A stretch of 63,246 nucleotides of DNA from an uncultured Oscillospiraceae bacterium (GCA_964654125.1 CAZZGG010000003.1:1-63246), one strand, 5' to 3'; counted from the stretch's first letter, positions 16,706 to 27,577 are shown. Numbers and translations: made by a program. Notes: a model not told the origin generated them from the sequence alone.

Positions 16706-17027
16706 AAACCCTCCTGCTTCCTGTCAATCAACTAAGAAGCTTTGACTATCAAAGTATCATGATTGTAGCATGCTTATTTCCAAATAACAAGAGAGCTTTT
16801 GGCTTATTTTCAGGATTTTTTCAGAATTCGTTCAGTATAAGGCTAAGCTCTGTGGTCTTGGCCAGCAGGCTGGCCACTTTTGGCAGATAATGACATGATT
16901 TAGCAAATCCTGCTCTGATTACTGCCAAAAGCTTGTATTTGATTTGCCTGGAGTAGCTGACCGGTCTTATAATGCAGATGATACAACTTTGTCCATATTT
17001 CGTTTTACAGTGGGCTGGAGGTGGCTT

Positions 17028-17876
17028 ATGCAAGTAGGTATTGTAACCAGAAGCTTTCCGGATATGACAAATCAGCAGGCAGCAGATTTCATGGCCAGGA
17101 CAGGCTTTAGCGTGACAGAGCTTTGCCTGGTCCAGCAAGACAGTAATTACTGGACCTACAATGGCACATCCGACATCAGTGATCTGACAGAAGAAAAACT
17201 GACCCGAATTGCCCGGTTCTATCGTGATGCGGGCCTGACAGTTCATTCCTTTGGTGTTTTTACTAATTTAATTGAAGAAGACCAGGCAAAAAGACAGCAT
17301 AATCTGGACTATTTTGCCCGGCACATGCAGCTGGCCGCAGCTGCCCAGATTCCGGTAGTGGCCACTGAATGTGGCTTTGACCCGGACCATCGTGGCGTGA
17401 GGGCCACTGTTTATGAAGAACAATTTGATCGGCTTTTGGATTCCTTAAGCTGGCTTTGCCAGCAAGCGGAAAAGTATGGCCTTATTCTGGCTTTGGAACC
17501 GTGTGTGCTTGATGTAGTGCCCAGCGCCAAAAGGATGGCTGATACAATCAGTCAGGTTGGCTCAGACCGTTTACAGGTTTTGCTGGACCCGGCCAACCTG
17601 ATCGCCAACTCATCTGAAGCGGATATGTTTGCTTATCTGGGACCGCACATCTCTTATTTTCATGGCAAGGACAGAAAGGTCAATGATGCCTATGGCCGCA
17701 ATATAGGTGAAGGCGATATTGATTGGCCGCTTTTTATCCAGCTGCTTAAAAAAGAGCATGCTGAAGTCCCTTTTATTATTGAGTATCCCCGTGCCCACAA
17801 TTGTGCTGAAATATTACAGCGTGTCCGTGATTATGAAGGACAGGCTGCTTTATTGACAGGAGGTAAAAATGATTAG
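17028..17876 (+). CDS. xylose-isomerase-like TIM-barrel protein (sugar phosphate isomerase/epimerase family)
   Basis: ATG 17028 lies behind GGAGGTGG. Length and pattern (LALEP, LLDPANL, HGKD) fit the AP_endonuc_2 fold. Confidence 0.7.
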   Translation: MQVGIVTRSFPDMTNQQAADFMARTGFSVTELCLVQQDSNYWTYNGTSDISDLTEEKLTRIARFYRDAGLTVHSFGVFTNLIEEDQAKRQHNLDYFARHMQLAAAAQIPVVATECGFDPDHRGVRATVYEEQFDRLLDSLSWLCQQAEKYGLILALEPCVLDVVPSAKRMADTISQVGSDRLQVLLDPANLIANSSEADMFAYLGPHISYFHGKDRKVNDAYGRNIGEGDIDWPLFIQLLKKEHAEVPFIIEYPRAHNCAEILQRVRDYEGQAALLTGGKND

Positions 17877-18666
17877 TCTTGGCGTAAACACAGTTTTGTT
17901 CAAGGGAGTGGATTTTGCCACTGCTGCCCGGGCCATTAAGATGTGTGGCTATGATGGTCTGGAGATTTCCGCCATCAAGGGCATGTGCGAGCATCTTGAC
18001 CTGGAACGCTACCTGGAACAAAAGGATGAGATCAGGCAGGTCCTGGCCGAAACCGGTTTAAAGATGCTGGCGGCGGAAGTGGCCTCACTTGATCCGGAAC
18101 GCCTGCGGCAGGCCTTTACGGCTGCTGCAGACATTGGCATCCCGGTGATCAATGTCGGACCGGGTGGCCAGATGAATGATGAGGAATCCCTCAAGGAAAC
18201 TATCGAAAAACTGGCCCGGATGTCTGAGCTGGCCGCCAGATTCGGGGTGACACTTTGCTGCAAGGCCCATGTTGGTGCTGCCATCTTTGACACCAAAACC
18301 ACCTTGCGGGCCATGGCTGAGATCATGGAACCAGCCTTTGGAGTTGATATGGACCCCAGTCATGTCTACCGGGCTGGCGAAAATCCTGAACTGGCCCTGC
18401 CTCAAGTGCTGAGCCGGACCAGGCATATCCATATCCGGGACTGCCGCGGCCGGGGGCCTTCACCGGGTGAACCGGCATTACAGACCTGTGGTCGCGGTGA
18501 CATTGATTTATTTTCTTATTTTAAAGCCATGGTGGATGGCGGCTATATTGGTCCTGTCAACCTGGAAATTATCGGTCCAGAGCAAAGTTTTGAGCAGGCA
18601 GTGGCTATAGCGGCTGAAAGCTATGGCTATATGAATGCCTGCCTGAAGCAGCTTGATGCGCGTTAG
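17869..18666 (+). CDS. xylose-isomerase-like TIM-barrel protein (second paralogue)
   Basis: 265 aa. GYDGLEISA, DMDPSH and HIHIRD motifs. Overlaps the upstream gene by 8 nt. Confidence 0.7.
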   Translation: MISLGVNTVLFKGVDFATAARAIKMCGYDGLEISAIKGMCEHLDLERYLEQKDEIRQVLAETGLKMLAAEVASLDPERLRQAFTAAADIGIPVINVGPGGQMNDEESLKETIEKLARMSELAARFGVTLCCKAHVGAAIFDTKTTLRAMAEIMEPAFGVDMDPSHVYRAGENPELALPQVLSRTRHIHIRDCRGRGPSPGEPALQTCGRGDIDLFSYFKAMVDGGYIGPVNLEIIGPEQSFEQAVAIAAESYGYMNACLKQLDAR

Positions 18667-18677
18667 AGGAGAAGATT

Positions 18678-20060
18678 ATGAAAAAACCCAATCTATTGTT
18701 TTTTGGCATTGACAGCCTGCGCCGTGATTTCATGAGCATGAACGGCTATAAAAATCTGACCACACCCCACCTGGATAAATACTTGTCTGATGCTCTGGTT
18801 TTCGACAATTGCTTCAGTCCCAGCATTCCGACCACCCCGGGTTATTCTTCAATGTTGACCGGCTTGGACTGTTTTGGCACTAATGTGGTGGCCTTACGCC
18901 ATAAAGGCGATCTGGCCCCGGGCGTCAAGACTTTGCCAGAAGTGCTCAGCGCAAACGGCTACAATACCAGCTGCATTGGCTTTACCGGCAACATTGCTTC
19001 GCGTGGCTTTGACAAGTACATCGATTATGAAGGCTGGGCAGCTGGCGAGGATGGCTACGCCCGCAAGGCGGAAAATATGAATGATGTGGCCATCCCGGAG
19101 CTGGAAAGACTGGCCGGGGAGGATAAACCCTTCTTTTTGTTCATGCGCCACATGGATCCGCACACACCCTATTTGCCGCCCCAGCCTTTCCATGAAATGT
19201 TCTACCAGAAGGATGCCTTTGATCCAGCCAACAAATCCTTACAGGCAGTTTATGACTTTAAGCCCTTCCGGGACTACTTCATTTCCTGGTTCCCGCCCCA
19301 CTGCACTGATAAGGACTTCATTGTCGCCCTCTATGAGGCAGCTGTTGCCTATATGGACACCTGTATCCAGAGCATCCTGAGCAAGCTTGAAGCTTTGGGC
19401 CTGGCTGATAACACTGTGGTCGTCATCACCTCTGACCATGGTGAGACCCTGGACGAGCACGATTGCTGGTTTGACCACCACGGCCTTTATGAACCAACCC
19501 TGACAGTGCCCTTGGCCTTTAAACTGCCCGGCAAAACCAAGCCGGCCCGTTTTCAGGAAAACTGTCAGCTCAAGGACCTAATGCCCACCCTGCTCGACCT
19601 GATGGGTATTGAAACTGATATCGCTTTTGACGGGCGCAATCTCATGGACCTGGCCAGGGATGGCCAGCTGAAGGCTGAAAATGAGTTCTACATCACTGAG
19701 TGCACCTGGATGCGTAAGCATGGCTGGCGCACGCCCAAATGGAAACTGATTGTGGCCCTGGAGCCTGATTTCCATTATAAGGATGAAATTGAGCTTTATG
19801 ATCTGGCTAAGGATCCGCTGGAACTGGAAAATGTGGCCGGGCGCTATCCTGAAGTGGTCGCCCTCCTGCATAAACGCCTGCTTGAGCATGTTGCCCAAAG
19901 GACAGCTGCAGTCGGCCGGCCCAATCCGATGGAGACAAATCTGGACTGGCACGGCAAAGGTAGCGGCCCTTTCAAGTCATCTGATGAAGCTTACAACACC
20001 CTGCATATAGGTGATCCGGATGCGGCCCGCCGCCTGCAGGCAGACAAAAAGAAAAAATAA
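18678..20060 (+). CDS. sulfatase-fold (alkaline-phosphatase superfamily) hydrolase lacking the formylglycine motif
   Basis: 460 aa with GIDSLRRD, HMDPHTPY and ITSDHGE. The position of C/S-x-P-x-R reads T-T-P-G-Y (SSMLTG follows). No signal peptide. Confidence 0.75.
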   Translation: MKKPNLLFFGIDSLRRDFMSMNGYKNLTTPHLDKYLSDALVFDNCFSPSIPTTPGYSSMLTGLDCFGTNVVALRHKGDLAPGVKTLPEVLSANGYNTSCIGFTGNIASRGFDKYIDYEGWAAGEDGYARKAENMNDVAIPELERLAGEDKPFFLFMRHMDPHTPYLPPQPFHEMFYQKDAFDPANKSLQAVYDFKPFRDYFISWFPPHCTDKDFIVALYEAAVAYMDTCIQSILSKLEALGLADNTVVVITSDHGETLDEHDCWFDHHGLYEPTLTVPLAFKLPGKTKPARFQENCQLKDLMPTLLDLMGIETDIAFDGRNLMDLARDGQLKAENEFYITECTWMRKHGWRTPKWKLIVALEPDFHYKDEIELYDLAKDPLELENVAGRYPEVVALLHKRLLEHVAQRTAAVGRPNPMETNLDWHGKGSGPFKSSDEAYNTLHIGDPDAARRLQADKKKK

Positions 20061-20110
20061 CCAAGACAGGCCCGGCTCAGGCCGGGCCTGCCCTGACCAG
20101 GGAGGAAAAC

Positions 20111-21118
20111 ATGAGAGTTTGTGTAATAGGAATGGGACCGATCGGGCATAATCATGCCAGGATCTACCAGTCCATACCGGAAGTTGAACTGGTTGGTGTT
20201 TGCGACAAAATTGCGGAACGGGCCAGCCTGGCTGGTCGCCAGTATGGTGTCCAGTCATATCTTGCTGCGCAAAAGATGCTCGATGAGCTGAAGCCTGACC
20301 TGGTCAGTGTGGCAACCGGCGGCTTTGAGTATGCCTCGGACCATTATGAGCCGACTATGCAGGCCTTGACCGCAGGTGCTCATGTCATGTGCGAAAAACC
20401 GATCAGTAATGACCTGGTCCAGGCAGAAGAAATGGTCCGGACTGCCCGGGATAGAGATCTTTGCCTGGCGGTTGATTTGAACCACCGTTTTACACCGGCT
20501 GCCCGCACAGCGAAAAAATGGCAGCAGGAAGGCCGGCTCGGTGAACTGCTGTTTATTAACATGCATCTTTGGATTGGCAAGTTCGGTGATTTCGAGACAG
20601 AGTTTTATCACTTAAAGGCACTTAATCCGCATAGTGTTGATATAGTTCGCTATTTTGGCGGGGATGTAGCCCGTGTGCAATGCTTTGCCAAAAAAGCCAG
20701 CGGACGCAACCTGTATTCGACCCAGTCAATGAATCTGCTTTTCACTAATGGTACTGTCGGTCATATCACCAGTTCTTATGATATCAAGCGGGGTCACCCG
20801 ATGGAGCGTTGTGAAGTGGCCGGCACAAACGGCCGTTTGGTTGTGGATGACATGTGGCGGGAAGCGACGCTTTATCCTGCGGACGACCTGGTTAAGCAGG
20901 TTTATACCAACCCGGTCTTTGGTGGTTTTACTGGTTTTTTTGACACCTTTGCTGACCGGATCACGGCCTTTGTCCGGCAGATCCTGGCCGGGACCAGACC
21001 GGAAGATATCGATGGCAGCGGCCAGGATGGTCTTGAAGCCAGCCGGGTCATCCATGCGGCGATTGAATCAATCCGCCAAGGAGGCCAGCCGGTGGATGTG
21101 GCCTCGGTGCGACAGTAG
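20111..21118 (+). CDS. Gfo/Idh/MocA-family NAD(P)-dependent oxidoreductase
   Basis: The N-terminal Rossmann motif MRVCVIGMGPIGHNH and the motif CEKPIS are typical of the family. Confidence 0.85.
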   Translation: MRVCVIGMGPIGHNHARIYQSIPEVELVGVCDKIAERASLAGRQYGVQSYLAAQKMLDELKPDLVSVATGGFEYASDHYEPTMQALTAGAHVMCEKPISNDLVQAEEMVRTARDRDLCLAVDLNHRFTPAARTAKKWQQEGRLGELLFINMHLWIGKFGDFETEFYHLKALNPHSVDIVRYFGGDVARVQCFAKKASGRNLYSTQSMNLLFTNGTVGHITSSYDIKRGHPMERCEVAGTNGRLVVDDMWREATLYPADDLVKQVYTNPVFGGFTGFFDTFADRITAFVRQILAGTRPEDIDGSGQDGLEASRVIHAAIESIRQGGQPVDVASVRQ

Positions 21119-21130
21119 GAGTTACCCAGC

Positions 21131-21982
21131 ATGGCTCTTTTGACAAAAACAGAGCAATATTTTACAGATGGCTTTCCCCTGGTTGTCATAAAGAACAGCC
21201 AGCATGCCAAGACAGCCCTGCACCGGCACGAGTTTTATGAACTGGTCTATATCGACCATGGTGTGACCTTGCACAGCCAGGAGGGCCAGGTCCAGATCCT
21301 GACAGCTGGTGATCTCTTCATGGTTTTACCCGGTGAAGTGCACGCTTACATCAGCACCCACAACACCGGCCTTTACAATTGCCTTTTCACCAGCCAGGCT
21401 TTAGCCGGTTTTGAAAAGGAGCTGGCCGATCTAGCTGAGCTGGGCTGGCTTTTGCAGAGCAGGCAGCGGGAAAACTTTGCCCGGGTTAATGCCGGCATGG
21501 CCCAACGCCAACAAATTGCCTTGCTTTTGGAACAAATCAGCTGGGAAAAAGCCAACCAGCCTTTGGGCTGGTCGATCAAGTGCAAGATCTTACTGCTGGA
21601 CCTGCTGCTGGTCTATGCCCGGCTGTGGGGCAGCCAGAAGCAGGAGACAGAAGAGACAGGCACCAAGTTTCGCCAGGTCCTGCAGGCAGTGGCTTATATT
21701 GAGGAAAACTACCGCCAGGAAATAGCAGTTGATGCCATCGCAGCGGCAGCCGGCCTATCAGCAGGTTATCTTTCCCGCCAGTTCAAGCATTTCCTGGGCA
21801 CTTCCCCAGCTGAGTATGCCCGCAACTTCCGCATGGCTAAAGCAGCTGAACTGCTGCGTAAAAATGATGTGAGCATAGCTGAGATAGCCAAAGAGCTGGG
21901 CTTTAGTGATGCGGCTTTATTTTCCCGGCAGTTTCGCCAGGTGACTGGCATATCACCAACAGGCTTTCGTAAAAATATCTAA
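21131..21982 (+). CDS. AraC-family transcriptional regulator (cupin sensor plus HTH)
   Basis: N-terminal cupin-like HRHEFYELVYIDHG and a C-terminal AraC HTH (GYLSRQFKHFLGTSPAEY ... FSRQFRQVTGISP). Confidence 0.85.
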   Translation: MALLTKTEQYFTDGFPLVVIKNSQHAKTALHRHEFYELVYIDHGVTLHSQEGQVQILTAGDLFMVLPGEVHAYISTHNTGLYNCLFTSQALAGFEKELADLAELGWLLQSRQRENFARVNAGMAQRQQIALLLEQISWEKANQPLGWSIKCKILLLDLLLVYARLWGSQKQETEETGTKFRQVLQAVAYIEENYRQEIAVDAIAAAAGLSAGYLSRQFKHFLGTSPAEYARNFRMAKAAELLRKNDVSIAEIAKELGFSDAALFSRQFRQVTGISPTGFRKNI

Positions 21983-22022
21983 AGCGGGCTGGTAGGCCCG
22001 ATGGTTTTGAGGAGGATTTAAC

Positions 22023-23126
22023 ATGGCTTTAAAGATCGCATTGGTCGGTATGGGCGGTATTGGCAACACCCATGCTGATGTCTATCAAAAGGATGAACTG
22101 GCCCAGCTGGTTGCTGTCTGTGATGTCAATCAGGCCAGGGCTGATGCAGCGGGGCAAAAGTACGGTGTGCCGGCCTTTTACTCACTGGGCGGCATGCTCA
22201 AGGCTATGCCGGAGATTGAAATTGTCGACGTAACAACATCCGGATATGAAAACGGCAGCTGGCATTATATCCCTGTCATGGAGGCCTTAGAGGCCAATAA
22301 GCACGTCCTGGTCGAAAAACCGATCTCCAATGATGTGCGCGAAGCGCGCGAAATGGTGCGCCTGGCCGGCCAGAAACAGCTCTATCTGGGCTGTAACCTG
22401 AATCACTATTTCACTGGTCCGGCTGCCCGGGCGACTGAACTTTTGGAACAAGGTAAAGTAGGCGAACCCGTTTATATCATCCACAAGATGGGCTTTAACG
22501 GTGGTGAGGCAGGCTATGCCGGGCCAGGTTCAGAACGCTGGAAACGGCCCTATTCACACTTGAAGGCTTTCCTGGCTCATCCTTTTTCAGTGCTGCGTTA
22601 TTTTGGTGGTGACATCACCCATGTCCAGGCCTATCTCAACAAGCCTGGTGTGCGTAAAACCGCTAATGATCTGATGTATTCAATCAACAGCGTCCATGTC
22701 CGTTTCGAAAACGGCAGCACAGGCTACCTGCTCTCCCAACGCGGCGATGCCATGTTCGGGCTGGGCGGCTGGTGGAGCTTTGAGATGGCAGGCACACGCG
22801 GTACCTTCGTGATTGAAAACTGTGTGGAAAAGCTTTATTACTGGGATGCAGAAAAACCCAAAAACAGTATGGCTTCTCCTGAACCGGATGAAGTGCTGGA
22901 TACAGGGATTGCAGACTTTGGAGCCACTTTCCCCAACCGGATCCATGCTTTCCTGGAAGATGTGACCAACAAGGTTGCCCCGGAATTGCTGCGGGCTTCT
23001 GGGCGTGATGCCCTAGCTACCCTTGAATACACCTTCGCCGCCATCCGTTCTTTTGAAGAAGGTGGCACAGTCGTGCGGCCTGAGCCCCTGCCCAATCTGC
23101 ACGGCGATATCACAAGGCCGATCTAA
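22023..23126 (+). CDS. Gfo/Idh/MocA-family oxidoreductase (second paralogue)
   Basis: IALVGMGGIGNTH Rossmann motif and VEKPIS motif. 367 aa. Confidence 0.85.
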   Translation: MALKIALVGMGGIGNTHADVYQKDELAQLVAVCDVNQARADAAGQKYGVPAFYSLGGMLKAMPEIEIVDVTTSGYENGSWHYIPVMEALEANKHVLVEKPISNDVREAREMVRLAGQKQLYLGCNLNHYFTGPAARATELLEQGKVGEPVYIIHKMGFNGGEAGYAGPGSERWKRPYSHLKAFLAHPFSVLRYFGGDITHVQAYLNKPGVRKTANDLMYSINSVHVRFENGSTGYLLSQRGDAMFGLGGWWSFEMAGTRGTFVIENCVEKLYYWDAEKPKNSMASPEPDEVLDTGIADFGATFPNRIHAFLEDVTNKVAPELLRASGRDALATLEYTFAAIRSFEEGGTVVRPEPLPNLHGDITRPI

Positions 23127-23127
23127 C

Positions 23128-24516
23128 ATGACGAAAAAAAAGCCCAATCTACTTCTGATAGTTGCAGACCAGCAGCGCTGGGACTGTGTCGGGGCAGCCG
23201 GAGCTTATCCGGTCCAGACGCCCAATCTGGACCGGTTGGCTGCGGAAGGAACATTTTTTGAAAAGGCCTTCACTACTATCCCGGTCTGCGGCCCGGCCCG
23301 CCAGGCCATGCTGTCCGGCCTGGCTCCGGACAGCTATGGCGGCTTGTGGAATCAGAACTTCCTGGCCTGTGCCGACCTGCTTCCACAAGACGATTTCTGG
23401 CTGGCCGGCCTGGCCCGGGCTGGCTACAAGAGCAGCCTGATCGGTAAATGGAATGTGGCACAAAACTATCGGCCGGTAGATTTTGGTTATCATAATTATA
23501 TCGACCTGGCCCAGGCCACAGCCAAAGCCCAGGCCGCTTATGCCCAACCGGCCTGGCCGGGTGGCTGGTTCGGCGACCCCAGCCCCTTTGCCCTGGCTGA
23601 CAGCGCCACTCATGTTGCTGCCGGCCTGGCCCTGGAGCAGATTGAGCAAGATTATAAGTCGGACCAGCCCTGGCTGATCCGGCTGGACCTGCCTGATCCC
23701 CATCTGCCCTGCCGGCCCTGCCAACCTTTTGCCAGTATGTATCAGCCACAGGATCTACCGGCCTGGCCCGGCTTTGGTGATGATCTGGCCGATAAACCCT
23801 ATATTCAGCGTCAGCAACTCGTCAACTGGCAGCTCCAAGGCAAGACCTGGCAGGAATGGAGCCGCACCGTGGCGCTTTATCTGGGCATGATCAGCCAGAT
23901 CGACGCGGCTGTCGGCCTGCTTTTGGAAAGGCTCGACCTGCTGGGACTGGCCCAGGACACAATTGTCATCTACACCAGTGACCACGGGGATATGTGTGGT
24001 TCACACGGCATGATTGACAAGCACTATGTCCTTTATGATGATGTGACCCGGGTGCCTTTTCTGCTACGTTATCCAGCCCAGGTGAAGGCTGGCCAGCGGG
24101 CCAGCCAGTATGTCAGCCACCTTGATTTAGGAGCCACTATTGCTGACCTGTGTCAGCTTGATGGTGTCAATCCAGGCCATGGCCAGTCCTTGCTGCCCTT
24201 GCTTAAGGGCAAAACCATGCCGGGTAAAGATCATGCTGTCTGCAGTTCCAACGGCCAGCAGTTTGGCCTTTACAGCCAGCGCTCAATCAGGACAGACGAC
24301 TGGCTTTATGTCTGGAACCTGACTGACACGGATGAACTCTACAGTGTCCAGGCTGATCCGGGCCAAAAAAATAACCTGATCAAAGCTGCAAGTCTGGAGC
24401 TTGAGCTGGCTGCCCTGCGCCGGCAGCTTTATGAAACATTGCTTTCGCGCAATGATCCTTTTGCCCGGACTGACTGGCTGCATGTTCAGCTGCTGCAGGG
24501 TAAGAAATTAACTTAG
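23128..24516 (+). CDS. Cys-type (formylglycine-dependent) sulfatase, cytoplasmic
   Basis: ATG 23128 lies 1 nt after the upstream stop. Canonical C-G-P-A-R-Q-A-M-L-S-G motif (Cys codon at 23287-23289), LLLIVADQQR and YTSDHGD. No signal peptide. Confidence 0.85.
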   Translation: MTKKKPNLLLIVADQQRWDCVGAAGAYPVQTPNLDRLAAEGTFFEKAFTTIPVCGPARQAMLSGLAPDSYGGLWNQNFLACADLLPQDDFWLAGLARAGYKSSLIGKWNVAQNYRPVDFGYHNYIDLAQATAKAQAAYAQPAWPGGWFGDPSPFALADSATHVAAGLALEQIEQDYKSDQPWLIRLDLPDPHLPCRPCQPFASMYQPQDLPAWPGFGDDLADKPYIQRQQLVNWQLQGKTWQEWSRTVALYLGMISQIDAAVGLLLERLDLLGLAQDTIVIYTSDHGDMCGSHGMIDKHYVLYDDVTRVPFLLRYPAQVKAGQRASQYVSHLDLGATIADLCQLDGVNPGHGQSLLPLLKGKTMPGKDHAVCSSNGQQFGLYSQRSIRTDDWLYVWNLTDTDELYSVQADPGQKNNLIKAASLELELAALRRQLYETLLSRNDPFARTDWLHVQLLQGKKLT

Positions 24517-24535
24517 GAAACAAGGGGAGAAAAGA

Positions 24536-25789
24536 ATGAAAAAATTTGCGTTGATCCTTTTGGCAGCAGTGCTGTTATTATCCAGTCTGCTGCTGGCGGG
24601 TTGTGAGACTAAAAAAGAAACTGAACAGGTTGAATTGTCTTTTATCCGGATTGGCAATGATGCTGCAGAGGCCGAATACTGGAAACGGCTGATCAATGAC
24701 TTTAACCAGGCTAATCCCGGCATCCTGGTGACCTATGACGATGCAGCCATCGGCGAACCGATGGAGACCAAGCTGAACTCGCAGTTCAGCGCTGGCCTGG
24801 GACCCGACCTGATCGGCCATGGCATCTTGTCAGTGGCAGCCAGGGTGGAGGCGGGCCATTATCAGCCTGTCACGGAGCTTTTCAATGACTGGGAGGGCAA
24901 AGACGATATCATGCCCAGTGTTCTGGCCAATGGAACTTATAAAGATGAGATTTACGGGCTGGCCTACTCAACCACACCCTTTATTTTCAGCTGGCGCAAG
25001 GACCTGTTTGAAAAGGCCGGGCTTGATCCGGAAAAACCACCGCAAAACTGGCAGGAACTAGCTGATTATGCCCGGCAGTTGACTGAGCATGACCAAAGCG
25101 GCCAGATAACTGTCTCAGGCTTTGCCTTCCCACGTTCAGCTGGTAACTTTGTTGAATTTGACACCCTGGTTTTTGGCAATGGCGGGATGTTTTATGACAA
25201 GCAGGGTAACCCCACCCTGGATACAGTTGATAAAAAGGAAACCCTGGAGTTTTTGACCAGCTTTGTTGATGAAACCAGCCTGCCTTTCAACAGCAATGAG
25301 ACAAATCCTTTCATTGCCGGCACTGCTGCCATGACCCTGATCAACAATGTTGCCCTGACCCCTATGCTGCAAAGTGCAGAATATGCGGGCAAGATAGGCA
25401 TCAGTCTACCGCCTTCCCAAGTGGAGCCAGCCACATTTTGTGGTTGTAATATGCTTTTTGTCGGCGGTGACAGCAAGCACAAAGAAGAAGCCTTCTCCTT
25501 TATAGCCTTTGCCCTCAGCAAGGAGGAAGTCCTGCAAAGAGCCAAAGAACTGGCTATACCAGTCACGCGCCAGTCACAGGTAGCGGCTTTTGTTCAGCTC
25601 GACCCGCTAAATGCAGTGCGGGCTGAGTGTGTGGCCAGGGGGATTGGCATGCCCCGGACCACCTGGTCAACTTCTTTCCAGAAGATCCGCAATGATCTGG
25701 TCCAACAGGTGCTCTACAATAAATTGTCGGTTGACGATGCGCTCAGTCAGGCCCAGCGGGAGCTGGAAGCAGAAATAGCTGCTCCCTAA
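24536..25789 (+). CDS. sugar ABC transporter substrate-binding lipoprotein (family 1)
   Basis: Signal peptide with lipobox LLAGC. 417 aa. Followed by two permease genes. Confidence 0.85.
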   Translation: MKKFALILLAAVLLLSSLLLAGCETKKETEQVELSFIRIGNDAAEAEYWKRLINDFNQANPGILVTYDDAAIGEPMETKLNSQFSAGLGPDLIGHGILSVAARVEAGHYQPVTELFNDWEGKDDIMPSVLANGTYKDEIYGLAYSTTPFIFSWRKDLFEKAGLDPEKPPQNWQELADYARQLTEHDQSGQITVSGFAFPRSAGNFVEFDTLVFGNGGMFYDKQGNPTLDTVDKKETLEFLTSFVDETSLPFNSNETNPFIAGTAAMTLINNVALTPMLQSAEYAGKIGISLPPSQVEPATFCGCNMLFVGGDSKHKEEAFSFIAFALSKEEVLQRAKELAIPVTRQSQVAAFVQLDPLNAVRAECVARGIGMPRTTWSTSFQKIRNDLVQQVLYNKLSVDDALSQAQRELEAEIAAP

Positions 25790-25790
25790 G

Positions 25791-26708
25791 ATGACGGCTC
25801 GGAACAAAGAACAAAGCAAAACAGGTGGCAGGCTGAGCGCTGATGCGCGCTCAGCCTATCTCCTCATTTTGCCCTTTTTCATTTTTTTTGGCATGTTTGT
25901 ACTCTATCCATTGCTGCAAAATTTCCTGACCAGCCTGACCGACCAGAATTTAAGCAGCCGCCAGTTTATCGGTTTGGCTAATTTCCGCCGCCTGGTCCAG
26001 GATCGCAGTTTTATCCGCTCTGTGCAAAACACCTTTATCTATGCCATATTCTCGGTTTTCCCTCTGCTGCTGCTAGGTTTTATTGCAGCCCTTTGTGTTG
26101 CCGGCCAAGGCAAAGCCCGTATGGCTGGACGAACTGTGCTGATTTTCCCCCATGTGCTTTCCATGGTCTCAGTCGCCATGATCTGGCTGTATCTTTTTGA
26201 GCCTGGTTCAGGCTTGCTTAATAAGCTGCTGGCCTTGCTGGGGCTGCCCGGCAGCAACTGGCTTTTTGACGAGCGCCTGGCTCTGCCCTGCCTGATCCTG
26301 GTCAATATCTGGAAAAGCAGCGGCTATGTCATGATGATCTACCTGGCTGCCATCCAGAGTGTCCCGGCCAGCCTGCATGAAGCTGCCCGGGTTGACGGGG
26401 CAGGTCCCTTGGCCCGGATCTGGCATATCACCTTGCCGGCGATCAGGCCGGTCAGTTTCTTTTTGCTGGCCACCTTGTCAATTGAGTGCTTTAAGACCTT
26501 CGAACAGGTGCGCATCATGACCAATGGTGGGCCTGTTGATGCGACAACAACCATCACACATCAGATTTATATGCGGGCTTTCTCCGAATTCAAACTCGGC
26601 TATGCCTCCAGCATGTCAGTGGTCCTGTTTGTTCTGGTCCTGATTATCACTTTACTTAATTTAAAGGTGGGCGGTCAGCTGGACAAAGAGGCGGGGGGCA
26701 GATCATGA
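25791..26708 (+). CDS. sugar ABC transporter permease
   Basis: Multi-TM, with EAA loop HEAARVDGAGPLARIWHITLP. Confidence 0.85.
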   Translation: MTARNKEQSKTGGRLSADARSAYLLILPFFIFFGMFVLYPLLQNFLTSLTDQNLSSRQFIGLANFRRLVQDRSFIRSVQNTFIYAIFSVFPLLLLGFIAALCVAGQGKARMAGRTVLIFPHVLSMVSVAMIWLYLFEPGSGLLNKLLALLGLPGSNWLFDERLALPCLILVNIWKSSGYVMMIYLAAIQSVPASLHEAARVDGAGPLARIWHITLPAIRPVSFFLLATLSIECFKTFEQVRIMTNGGPVDATTTITHQIYMRAFSEFKLGYASSMSVVLFVLVLIITLLNLKVGGQLDKEAGGRS

Positions 26709-27577
26709 AAGAAGCCAGGGCTGTAAAAATTATTGGCGGTGTGGTTTTAGCTCTTTTTGCCCTGGCGGCCGGCTTACCTTTTCTGGTCATGCTCGCGGTA
26801 TCCTTGCAGGACATGAGCCAGATTTATGCGCCAGGCCTAAGCCTCATTCCGCGCCCCTTGCGGCTGGATGTCTACCGCCAGGCTCTGACCAGCGGTCCCT
26901 GGCTGCGCTATATCCTGAACAGCCTTTATGTTGCTGGCCTGGCTACAGCGATCAGCCTGCTCATCAACGCTATGACTGGTTATGCCTTTGCCCGTATCAG
27001 TTTCCCGCTGCGGCATTTTTTATTTATCTTGATTTTGGCCGGCATGATGATACCGGCTGAAGTGACCTTAGTGCCGCTTTTTATCATGATCCGCCATTTC
27101 CCCCTAACCGGCGGCAACAATCTGCTTGGCCGGGGCGGCACCGGACTGGTTGATACCTATGCCGGCCTGGTCCTGCCTTATATTGCCGGCTCTTTCGGGG
27201 TATTCATGTGCCGCCAGTTTTATCTGCTTTTTCCCAAGGAGCTTGATGAAGCGGCTAAAATTGATGGCTGTTCCCGCTTCAAGACTTTCATTTTGATCTA
27301 TCTGCCCTTGTCCAAACCTGTCCTGGGTGCCCTGGCTGTGCTCAAATTCACCGGAGCCTGGAACCAGTACACCTGGCCGCTGGTCATGACCAACACTGGG
27401 CGCGACAAGATAACCACAGTGCAGCTGGCCTTGACTGCTTTTCGCAATGAAGGGGAGATCTTCTGGAATCAGTTGATGGCGGCAACTCTTGTTGCCACAC
27501 TGGTCATTTTGCTGATCTTCTTGTCCCTGCAGCGCTACTTTGTCAGTGGCCTGCTGGCCGGATCGGTCAAAGAATAA
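26705..27577 (+). CDS. sugar ABC transporter permease
   Basis: Multi-TM, with EAA loop DEAAKIDGCSRFKTFILIYLP. ATGA overlap with the upstream gene. Confidence 0.85.
   Translation: MKEARAVKIIGGVVLALFALAAGLPFLVMLAVSLQDMSQIYAPGLSLIPRPLRLDVYRQALTSGPWLRYILNSLYVAGLATAISLLINAMTGYAFARISFPLRHFLFILILAGMMIPAEVTLVPLFIMIRHFPLTGGNNLLGRGGTGLVDTYAGLVLPYIAGSFGVFMCRQFYLLFPKELDEAAKIDGCSRFKTFILIYLPLSKPVLGALAVLKFTGAWNQYTWPLVMTNTGRDKITTVQLALTAFRNEGEIFWNQLMAATLVATLVILLIFLSLQRYFVSGLLAGSVKE

Follow-up and report, generated by a model that had tools for sequence, protein, structure and literature searches.

A widely conserved gene module with a threonine-type sulfatase-fold enzyme in an Oscillospiraceae locus, and its possible role in the catabolism of sulfate-esterified carbohydrates

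The 63,246-nucleotide stretch of DNA analyzed here, from an uncultured Oscillospiraceae bacterium (GCA_964654125.1 CAZZGG010000003.1:1-63246; the whole stretch is called the window), holds at positions 17028–27577 of the + strand ten genes of the same direction, g1 to g10, which according to the list of open reading frames (ORFs) and a Pfam scan encode two xylose-isomerase-like TIM barrels, two Gfo/Idh/MocA oxidoreductases, an AraC regulator, two sulfatase-fold proteins, and a CUT1-type importer. We found that the conserved heart of this locus is g2-g3-g4 together with a second oxidoreductase, and that g1, the sulfatase g7, and the importer are lineage-specific add-ons. An earlier reading of the window, made from the sequence alone (the sequence-only reading), had taken all ten genes as the system, which was too wide. 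The signature gene of the module is g3, a sulfatase-fold enzyme with a threonine at the position of the cysteine that is otherwise converted to formylglycine. With a confidence somewhat short of even, we read the locus as an AraC-associated catabolic operon for a small sulfate-esterified carbohydrate (a monosaccharide, a short glycoside, or similar) that is imported by the CUT1 system and processed via keto intermediates; by analogy, it would belong among the keto-intermediate sugar operons.

Conservation of the module and nature of g3

The sequence-only reading had proposed a search for conservation of the gene neighborhood, and this search was carried out with 85 loci: three g3 homologs were looked up, which gave five loci, and a scan with one genome for each species gave the other 80. 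Every ORF in them was scored against the ten window proteins. The loci were chosen via g3, and all frequencies therefore describe g3 neighborhoods only, in which related species are not independent of each other; ORF calling was mechanical in the high-GC loci. The order oxidoreductase, g2-type TIM barrel, g3, g4-type oxidoreductase recurs in about 82 of the 85 loci, which span at least ten phyla and include Clostridia, Paenibacillus and Bacillaceae, Verrucomicrobiota, Lentisphaerota, Kiritimatiellia, Planctomycetota, Spirochaetota, Armatimonadota, Latescibacterota, Gemmatimonadota, and Chloroflexota. In 50 of the loci, 5 kb or more is available on each side (well-flanked loci); a g2-type barrel is found in 44 of these, two oxidoreductases within 6 kb in 39, an AraC gene in 35, an importer of the ATP-binding cassette (ABC) type that depends on a substrate-binding protein (CUT1 or Opp type) in 24, a g7-type Cys sulfatase in 17, and a g1-type barrel in 16. 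Identities across loci are 58–79% for g3, 56–68% for g2, and 53–73% for g1. The position of g4 beside g3 is conserved, and g6-type orthologs occur in 31 loci, their place being taken by another oxidoreductase type in Bacilli and some Clostridia. The complete ten-gene order is confined to the close relatives L004, L006, and L008, and L005, which is cut at its 5′ end, has g3-g10 in the same order. Because of these loci, and because the core is found in about 80 further ones, the ten-gene arrangement is not due to chance. In one Latescibacterota locus (L075), g3 stands alone among uninformative neighbors. The distribution of g3 is patchy, as expected for an accessory trait: it is present in 12 of 150 sampled Clostridia genomes (11 of 108 genera) and was not found in the only other genome that belongs to the same family. 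The sequence-only reading had not recognized the combination as characterized, and this is supported: all NCBIfam equivalog scores are far under their cut-offs, our literature searches turned up no account of the cluster or of any Thr-type sulfatase-fold enzyme, and no ortholog of the module is characterized.

The product of g3 (18678–20060, + strand) matches the sulfatase fold (PF00884, 149 bits, plus SGSH_C) and lacks the motif C/S-x-P-x-R. Where C-x-P-x-R is expected, it has T52-T-P-G-Y56-S-S-M-L-T-G, and both T52 and Y56 are invariant in 87 g3 orthologs. Across these orthologs, 139 of the 460 residues are at least 97% invariant, and this near-invariant set includes T52, T53, Y56, D253, H254, H261, C263, D266, H267, H268, and the block Y338–K347. 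In pairwise alignment with g7, the Cys-type sulfatase of the same locus, the Cys is exchanged for Thr52, the Arg for Tyr56, the Lys of a G-K-W motif for Phe102/Thr103, and the Lys following D-H-G for His267, a mapping that comes from pairwise and profile alignments and not from a solved structure. Proteins of the g3 type are labeled plainly as "sulfatase" or "arylsulfatase" in the databases, yet, by their motif, they cannot form formylglycine. By analogy with other members of the superfamily, g3 is more likely to be a metal-dependent enzyme that uses the Thr for transfer or hydrolysis. Weak NCBIfam matches of 19–33 bits to phosphoethanolamine transferases, LtaS, and phosphoglycerate mutase were also recorded.

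The AlphaFold model of g3 (mean predicted local distance difference test score 78.8) retrieved only S1 sulfatases or phosphonate monoester hydrolases among the top 50 Foldseek matches, with template modeling scores of 0.6–0.65 and 18–23% identity, and no phosphotransferase was among the best sequence or structure matches. The model-based search thus adds no functional hint beyond the fold. In the phylogenetic tree, all g3 orthologs form one clade (100/100), and a second group of Thr-type paralogs is sister to it (joint support 100/100), both being well apart from the Cys-type enzymes. The motif of this second paralog is D-I-P-T-E-V-A-H-T-G-I-F-T-G, without the Pro; the gene is found at L016:12928–14388 and in about 19 further loci, and it comes after an adenosine-5′-phosphosulfate (APS) kinase gene in Paenibacillus operons.

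Sulfur genes, the Cys-type sulfatase, and the other partners

Genes of the 85 loci that were unmatched by the ten window proteins were scanned with Pfam and then counted. Of the 85 loci, 21 have a Sulfotransfer_3 gene. Its place is often precisely that between g3 and g4 (as at L017:11420–12211), and it is found there in loci of Verrucomicrobiota, Lentisphaerota, Planctomycetota, and some Clostridia. APS kinase genes occur in 25 of the 85 loci, and in a Paenibacillus locus this gene lies inside the operon, between g4 and the Thr-type paralog (L016:12425–12979). APS kinase is also found as CysN-CysC fusions with an adjoining CysD (L047, L015, and L065), and in Bacillaceae as part of a Sat-transporter-CysC set that comes after the module (L024:13552–17125). 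Within the module or next to it, 26 of the 50 well-flanked loci carry a gene for 3′-phosphoadenosine-5′-phosphosulfate (PAPS) formation or for sulfotransfer (for a sulfotransferase, APS kinase, or ATP sulfurylase), and 36 carry at least one sulfur gene if g7-type sulfatases and Thr-type paralogs are counted too. There is about one cysC per genome, and chance adjacency within 9 kb is estimated at well under 1%. The arrangements of the sulfur genes differ among lineages, which argues for independent associations. Judged from these neighborhoods, the link between the module and sulfate is robust; its direction is ambiguous, as sulfate could be put on or released sulfate could be assimilated. In the host genome (2.79 Mb, 94% complete), we did not find genes for Sulfotransfer_3, APS kinase, or ATP sulfurylase, and because genes for making PAPS are lacking there, the sulfate ester would have to arrive with the substrate in this host. 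An imported sulfated (or phosphorylated) substrate had been proposed from the sequence alone: the sulfate part gains, over the phosphate part, from the g7 clade, the maturase described below, and the PAPS and sulfotransferase genes, whereas the presence of sulfation genes elsewhere is not explained by a plain scheme of imported sulfate.

The second sulfatase-fold protein, g7 (23128–24516, + strand), starts at ATG 23128 (MTKKKPNLL...), one base past the g6 stop, and not at TTG 23023. It has the Cys-type motif C-G-P-A-R-Q-A-M-L-S-G, which fits C/S-x-P-x-R followed by (L/M)-(T/S)-G and whose C/S-x-P-x-R part is conserved across the g7 clade. Its PF00884 score is 153 bits (unrounded, 152.6 bits against a cut-off of 25), its PDB matches are all sulfatases, and the closest solved structures are the carbohydrate sulfatases 6pt4, 6hr5, and 5g2v. 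We predict g7 to be a Cys-type family S1 sulfatase. A gene for an anaerobic sulfatase-maturating enzyme (anSME) with radical SAM and SPASM domains is present in the genome (G000:C53:2278–3357; TIGR03942, 393.6 bits against a cut-off of 349.45), so that g7 could be matured in the cytoplasm. This anSME gene is followed, with a 4-nt overlap, by a gene for a transglutaminase-core protein of 405 residues (L086 on G000:C53, 1486–3833). Ester removal had been proposed by the sequence-only reading; for g7 this stands as a prediction from the Cys-type motif and the maturase, whereas g3 cannot, by its motif, be a formylglycine sulfatase, and its share in ester removal is unproven.

In the tree, the g7-type enzymes of the Clostridia and Bacilli module loci form one clade (100/100), apart from the other Cys sulfatases of the host. 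Because of this single clade, g7 is a dedicated, albeit optional, partner of the module. Proteins similar to g7 (34–48% identity) are encoded in 9 of the 150 Clostridia genomes, and five of the eight other carriers also have g3, on different contigs. The host genome contains 12 strong PF00884 genes, and among those that were read there are seven Cys-type enzymes besides g7, six of which begin directly with the fold and have no signal peptide. Cytoplasmic sulfatases are thus normal for this host and not peculiar to the locus, and intracellular desulfation of compounds that have been taken up seems to be a general habit of the host. Sulfatase-fold genes lie on the G000 contigs C164, C95, C82, C77, C1, C52, and C122 (L088, L090–L093, L097, and L099).

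The gene directly 5′ of g3 encodes the core TIM barrel g2 ("TIMb", 17869–18666; PF01261, 85 bits), and the one directly 3′ the core oxidoreductase g4 ("GFOa", 20111–21118; PF01408 plus C3 domain). The second oxidoreductase is g6 ("GFOb", 22023–23126; PF01408), and g1 ("TIMa", 17028–17876; AP_endonuc_2 PF01261, 123 bits) is an accessory barrel, all on the + strand. PDB sequence searches with g1, g2, g4, g6, and g8 gave remote relatives only, and a profile of the g1 family found no close solved structure. The best matches of the g2 ortholog profile were IolI (1i60, E 4e-10) and IolE (3cny); AtOGE (8bvk), an eliminase of 3-keto-glycosides, was matched weakly. Among the g2 orthologs, 74 residues are invariant, including H134, D160/D162, H186/H188, and E233, and the catalytic His/metal ligands of AtOGE are H132, H134, D163, H189, and E233, a comparison made without residue-level alignment. 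Against the NCBIfam equivalogs, g4 scores 110 bits with IolG (cut-off 355), 116 bits with UDP-N-acetylglucosamine 3-dehydrogenase (450), 63 bits with LgdA (650), and 48 bits with the BT_2159 family (650); g2 scores 37 bits with IolE (290), and g6 84 bits with IolG (355). Orthology to the characterized dehydrogenases of the 3-keto-glycoside type (BT2158/BT2159, LgdA) was likewise not found (NF058561, 29–42 bits against 750; NF058563, 40–48 against 650; NF052479, 53–63 against 650). With scores far under the cut-offs, membership in the Iol, levoglucosan, BT2158/2159, choline sulfatase, arylsulfatase, PehA, and Ugp families was rejected.

The importer consists of the binding protein g8 (24536–25789; SBP_bac_1 PF01547, PF13416) and the permeases g9 (25791–26708; UgpA/MalF type) and g10 (26705–27577; UgpE/MalG type), both with BPD_transp_1 (PF00528). 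The lipoprotein signal of g8 (LLLAGC, with the LAGC lipobox) is what a binding protein of a Gram-positive organism should have; the closest solved structures of g8 are sugar-binding proteins, and it reaches 35 bits with the UgpB model (cut-off 411). The permeases score 166 bits (g9 with UgpA) and 135 bits (g10 with UgpE), both under the cut-off. A family-1 binding lipoprotein with two MalF/MalG-type permeases is the composition of a CUT1 importer; an ABC ATPase is not encoded among the ten genes. The regulator g5 (21131–21982) is an AraC-family protein with cupin sensor and helix-turn-helix domain (cupin plus HTH_18; PF12833 and PF02311).

Several points of the sequence-only reading were borne out at this level. 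The ten genes were said to be co-directional with gaps of 50 nt or less, and the spacings from g1 to g10 are −8, 11, 50, 12, 40, 1, 19, 1, and −4 nt; the gene identities agree with the Pfam scan; there is no glycoside hydrolase among the ten genes; and the enzymes were described as lacking signal peptides, which holds for g1–g7, since in each of these proteins the fold itself (Rossmann strand or sulfatase beta-1) stands at the very start, and they can be regarded as cytoplasmic. The neighbors are unrelated and lie on the other strand (an AMP-binding enzyme upstream, lplA and deoR downstream), for which reason the ten genes are taken as the unit. The g1 ATG is preceded by GGAGG, and a promoter-like site, TTGCCT-18-TATAAT, lies about 55 nt 5′ of g1 (16944–16973, + strand; consensus scan, 10/12 matches, a pattern match only). 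The spacer between g3 and g4 contains a G+C-rich stem-loop (20058–20099; core GGCCCGGC-TCAG-GCCGGGCC). It is not an operon terminator, since a T-run is missing on the coding + strand, and it may be a candidate element for RNA stability or processing.

Further genes accompany the module in other loci. A small protein of the ASRT family (PF07100, Anabaena sensory rhodopsin transducer) is encoded just 5′ of the first oxidoreductase in a Bacillaceae locus (L051:7706–8116) and near the module in a Planctomycetota locus (L026:14591–15313), both identified by Pfam scan, and ORFs at L024:7662–8108 and L053:7708–8076 were assigned to it by position only. Directly 5′ of the g1-type barrel, an ORF of about 175–181 codons without Pfam or NCBIfam match is conserved (L049:4924–5451, L101:6219–6764, and eight further loci) in Paenibacillus, Bacillaceae, and a single Clostridia locus. 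The window lacks this ORF, which recalls the small beta subunit of C-glycoside eliminases. A PhyH-family Fe(II)/2-oxoglutarate dioxygenase gene stands beside the module in Paenibacillus and Bacillaceae (L016:7014–7805 and 12 further loci), and apiosidase-like genes (PF13204/DUF5060) do so in contigs of Mahella australiensis and Caldicoprobacterales (L001:1–1503, L002:15798–17272, L003:15798–17273). L101 carries GH18, GH31, and GH29 genes, and L100 genes for a fucose isomerase, a kinase, and an aldolase. On one metagenome contig, a gene for an S-adenosylmethionine (SAM)-dependent methyltransferase lies between the g2-type barrel and g3 (L102:9201–9965), a place similar to the one that a sulfotransferase gene has between g3 and g4 in other lineages.

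Proposed working and alternative explanations

In the working that we favor, g8–g10, together with a shared ATPase encoded elsewhere, would import a small sulfate-esterified carbohydrate, whose sulfate ester would be hydrolyzed by g7. One of the two Gfo/Idh/MocA enzymes (g4 or g6) would oxidize a ring carbinol with NAD+, and g2 and g1 would act as metal-dependent enolizing enzymes that carry out beta-elimination and hydration, or isomerization, of the keto sugar. Using Thr52 and its remodeled His-rich metal site, g3 would take off or relocate a further ester group, for which sulfate is the most likely identity and phosphate a less likely one; the substrate of g3 is probably an intermediate that only the neighboring enzymes make. 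The other oxidoreductase would then reduce the product to an ordinary sugar for glycolysis.

Several observations weigh against this working. Three cationic residues that are kept in g7 (the Arg and two Lys) are lost in g3, and a Thr nucleophile is typical of phosphoryl transfer in this superfamily (NPP, EptA/MCR, LtaS); for both reasons, g3 may not touch sulfate at all. No protein of the locus reaches any curated cut-off of the NCBIfam equivalogs, and every enzymatic step is therefore assigned by analogy. The best remote matches of g2 and g4 are inositol rather than glycoside enzymes, and a weak terminator-like site lies after g5, within the proposed operon. The sulfotransferase and PAPS genes of other loci would imply that sulfate is sometimes put on, for which a purely desulfating scheme has no need, and the Sat and CysC genes of Bacilli could simply serve sulfate assimilation, perhaps of released sulfate.

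The residues of g3 are also what an enzyme for phosphorylated substrates might show. If g3 were a phosphoesterase or phosphodiesterase, the core would handle a phosphorylated sugar or sugar phosphodiester, and g7 and the sulfur genes would be secondary additions. The exchanges relative to g7 and the invariant H261, C263, D266, H267, and H268 agree with this, as do the weak matches to phosphoethanolamine transferases, LtaS, and phosphoglycerate mutase and the fact that the permeases score best with the UgpA and UgpE models. However, sulfur and not phosphorus genes are enriched in the neighborhood, carbohydrate sulfatases and not phosphotransferases are closest to g3 in sequence and structure, and g8 has a far too low UgpB score and sugar-binding proteins as closest solved relatives, and we regard this explanation as unlikely. 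Just as unlikely in our estimation, the sulfate ester could be an obligatory intermediate that many carriers install themselves, by a PAPS-dependent sulfotransferase or the Thr-type paralog, so that g3 would be no hydrolase but a Thr-based sulfuryl-transferring enzyme (mutase or transferase), or one that eliminates sulfate from a keto intermediate, and the host would import the sulfated form. This would account for the Sulfotransfer_3 genes between g3 and g4, for the APS kinase within the Paenibacillus operon and the CysD/CysN-CysC genes beside the module, for loci that hold both sulfation genes and importers with binding proteins, and for the single origin of all Thr-type enzymes in the tree. 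A sulfo-Thr intermediate is hard to hydrolyze and suits transfer (compare the phospho-Ser mutase iPGM of the same superfamily), but we know of no such sulfuryl-transfer chemistry. Furthermore, PAPS is costly for catabolism, the host has g3 without PAPS genes or a sulfotransferase, the Sat-transporter-CysC sets of Bacilli may serve ordinary assimilation, and in about half of the loci no sulfation gene is close by.

The sequence-only reading had left open a sugar or a cyclitol as substrate, and the latter option is weakened for this host. In a cyclitol interconversion, an IolG-like dehydrogenase would form an inosose, a barrel like IolI or IolE would isomerize or dehydrate it, and g3 and g7 would remove sulfate (or phosphate) from an esterified inositol. 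IolG is among the top equivalog matches of g4, g6, and the third oxidoreductase type, IolI and IolE are the best solved relatives of the g2 profile, and inositol 2-dehydrogenases lead the PDB matches of g4. Yet the IolG and IolE scores of g4 and g2 are far under their cut-offs, we know of no abundant natural inositol sulfate, and neither IolD (best 214 bits, cut-off 715) nor IolC (187 bits, cut-off 300) was found above cut-off in the host genome, so that a freed cyclitol would have no known onward route; we consider this slightly less probable than the two preceding explanations. It is very improbable that the module is anabolic and modifies a sugar, either imported or endogenous, to give a sulfated (or methylated) metabolite or a component of the envelope, with the sulfatases for recycling: sulfotransferase and PAPS genes in many loci and the methyltransferase between g2 and g3 in L102 would suit such a role, but importers with binding proteins are frequent, AraC, glycosidase, or sugar-kinase genes are common neighbors, the loci that were examined showed neither a glycosyltransferase nor a nucleotide-sugar enzyme, and the host genome is unable to make PAPS. 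Glucosinolates, the sulfated thioglucosides handled by BT2156-2160, were considered as substrate; nothing specific supports them, the carrier habitats include lakes, peat, and digesters, and they remain one candidate among others. Reverse sulfotransfer to 3′-phosphoadenosine-5′-phosphate for energy conservation was rejected on thermodynamic grounds.

The conservation of g3 and its partner enzymes (about 60% identity among carriers in Bacillota, Planctomycetota, Verrucomicrobiota, and Latescibacterota) implies a defined and widespread substrate. Habitats of the carriers are soil, peat, lakes, termite guts, and digesters, in which the chemistry of ester-sulfate carbon is poorly understood. The window shows the extended Clostridia version of the module, with the second TIM barrel, the dedicated Cys sulfatase clade, the CUT1 importer, and an anSME without PAPS pathway. 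If the pathway were solved, hundreds of mis-annotated genes would receive a function, and either another way of handling sulfated carbohydrates or a reaction type new to the sulfatase fold would become known. It would also extend the recently found glycosidase-free breakdown of glycans via keto intermediates. There is also a small chance that a sulfate ester is a working intermediate of sugar catabolism, installed with PAPS in many lineages and imported in the host. In that case, among Thr-based enzymes of the S1 sulfatase fold, g3 would be the first to transfer, shift, or eliminate a sulfuryl group instead of hydrolyzing it, and sulfation would be an activation step in carbohydrate breakdown.

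Comparison with known systems

The levoglucosan enzymes LgdA/B1/B2/C are of the oxidize-eliminate-hydrate-reduce type. Glycosidase-free routes have been described in which a Gfo/Idh/MocA enzyme oxidizes C3, a TIM-barrel/DUF1080 lyase eliminates the aglycone, a hydratase follows, and a second oxidoreductase reduces the 3-keto-glucose (bioRxiv 10.1101/2024.03.25.586180; PMC10628242). Examples are BT2156-2159, Alistipes AL1-4, and the Gram-positive fosmid cluster P2B11, in which two oxidoreductases lie between two "sugar phosphate isomerases," and which cleaves glucuronides and, more slowly, glycosides with 6-sulfate or 6-phosphate (bioRxiv 10.1101/2024.03.25.586180). The GlycDH/OGE/HYD/Gfo enzymes of A. 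tumefaciens are also an oxidize-eliminate-hydrate-reduce set, and 8bvk is its AtOGE (PMC10628242). We consider these glycoside pathways to be the closest precedent at the system level by analogy: like BT2156-2159/AL1-4, P2B11, and the A. tumefaciens set, the locus has two Gfo/Idh/MocA enzymes (g4 and g6) and two TIM barrels (g1 and g2) and no glycoside hydrolase, and with P2B11 it shares the Gram-positive origin. The idea of the sequence-only reading that oxidation is followed by elimination or isomerization fits this architecture. However, the locus is not orthologous to the BT_2158, BT_2159, and LgdA models (28–63 bits against cut-offs of 650–750), the known keto-glycoside systems contain no sulfatase-fold enzyme, and, unlike in these systems, the invariant unit of the module is one TIM barrel plus g3 between two oxidoreductases. 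The inositol enzymes IolG/IolI/IolE also combine a dehydrogenase with TIM barrels for work on a ring carbinol and are the best remote matches of g4 and g2, but their pathway has no sulfatase-fold partner, and the locus scores far under the Iol equivalog cut-offs.

With the formylglycine sulfatases of family S1 (PsS1_NC 6pt4, BT4656 5g2v, FA22250 6hr5), g3 has the two-domain fold in common and differs by the Thr in place of Cys/Ser, by the missing Arg and two Lys, and thus by the defining motif. The sulfatase g7 agrees with them in its fold and C-x-P-x-R motif and in having a maturase encoded by the genome, but it is predicted to be cytoplasmic and has low similarity to the solved enzymes (best PDB match 158 bits). 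In having a hydroxyl nucleophile at the formylglycine position, g3 resembles NPP, EptA/MCR-1, LtaS, and the cofactor-independent phosphoglycerate mutase, and like Thr/Ser-nucleophile members of the alkaline phosphatase superfamily it has a His-rich site near the metal. In contrast to these enzymes, g3 is a predicted soluble protein with the C-terminal subdomain of sulfatases, and it is encoded in a sulfur-linked sugar operon.

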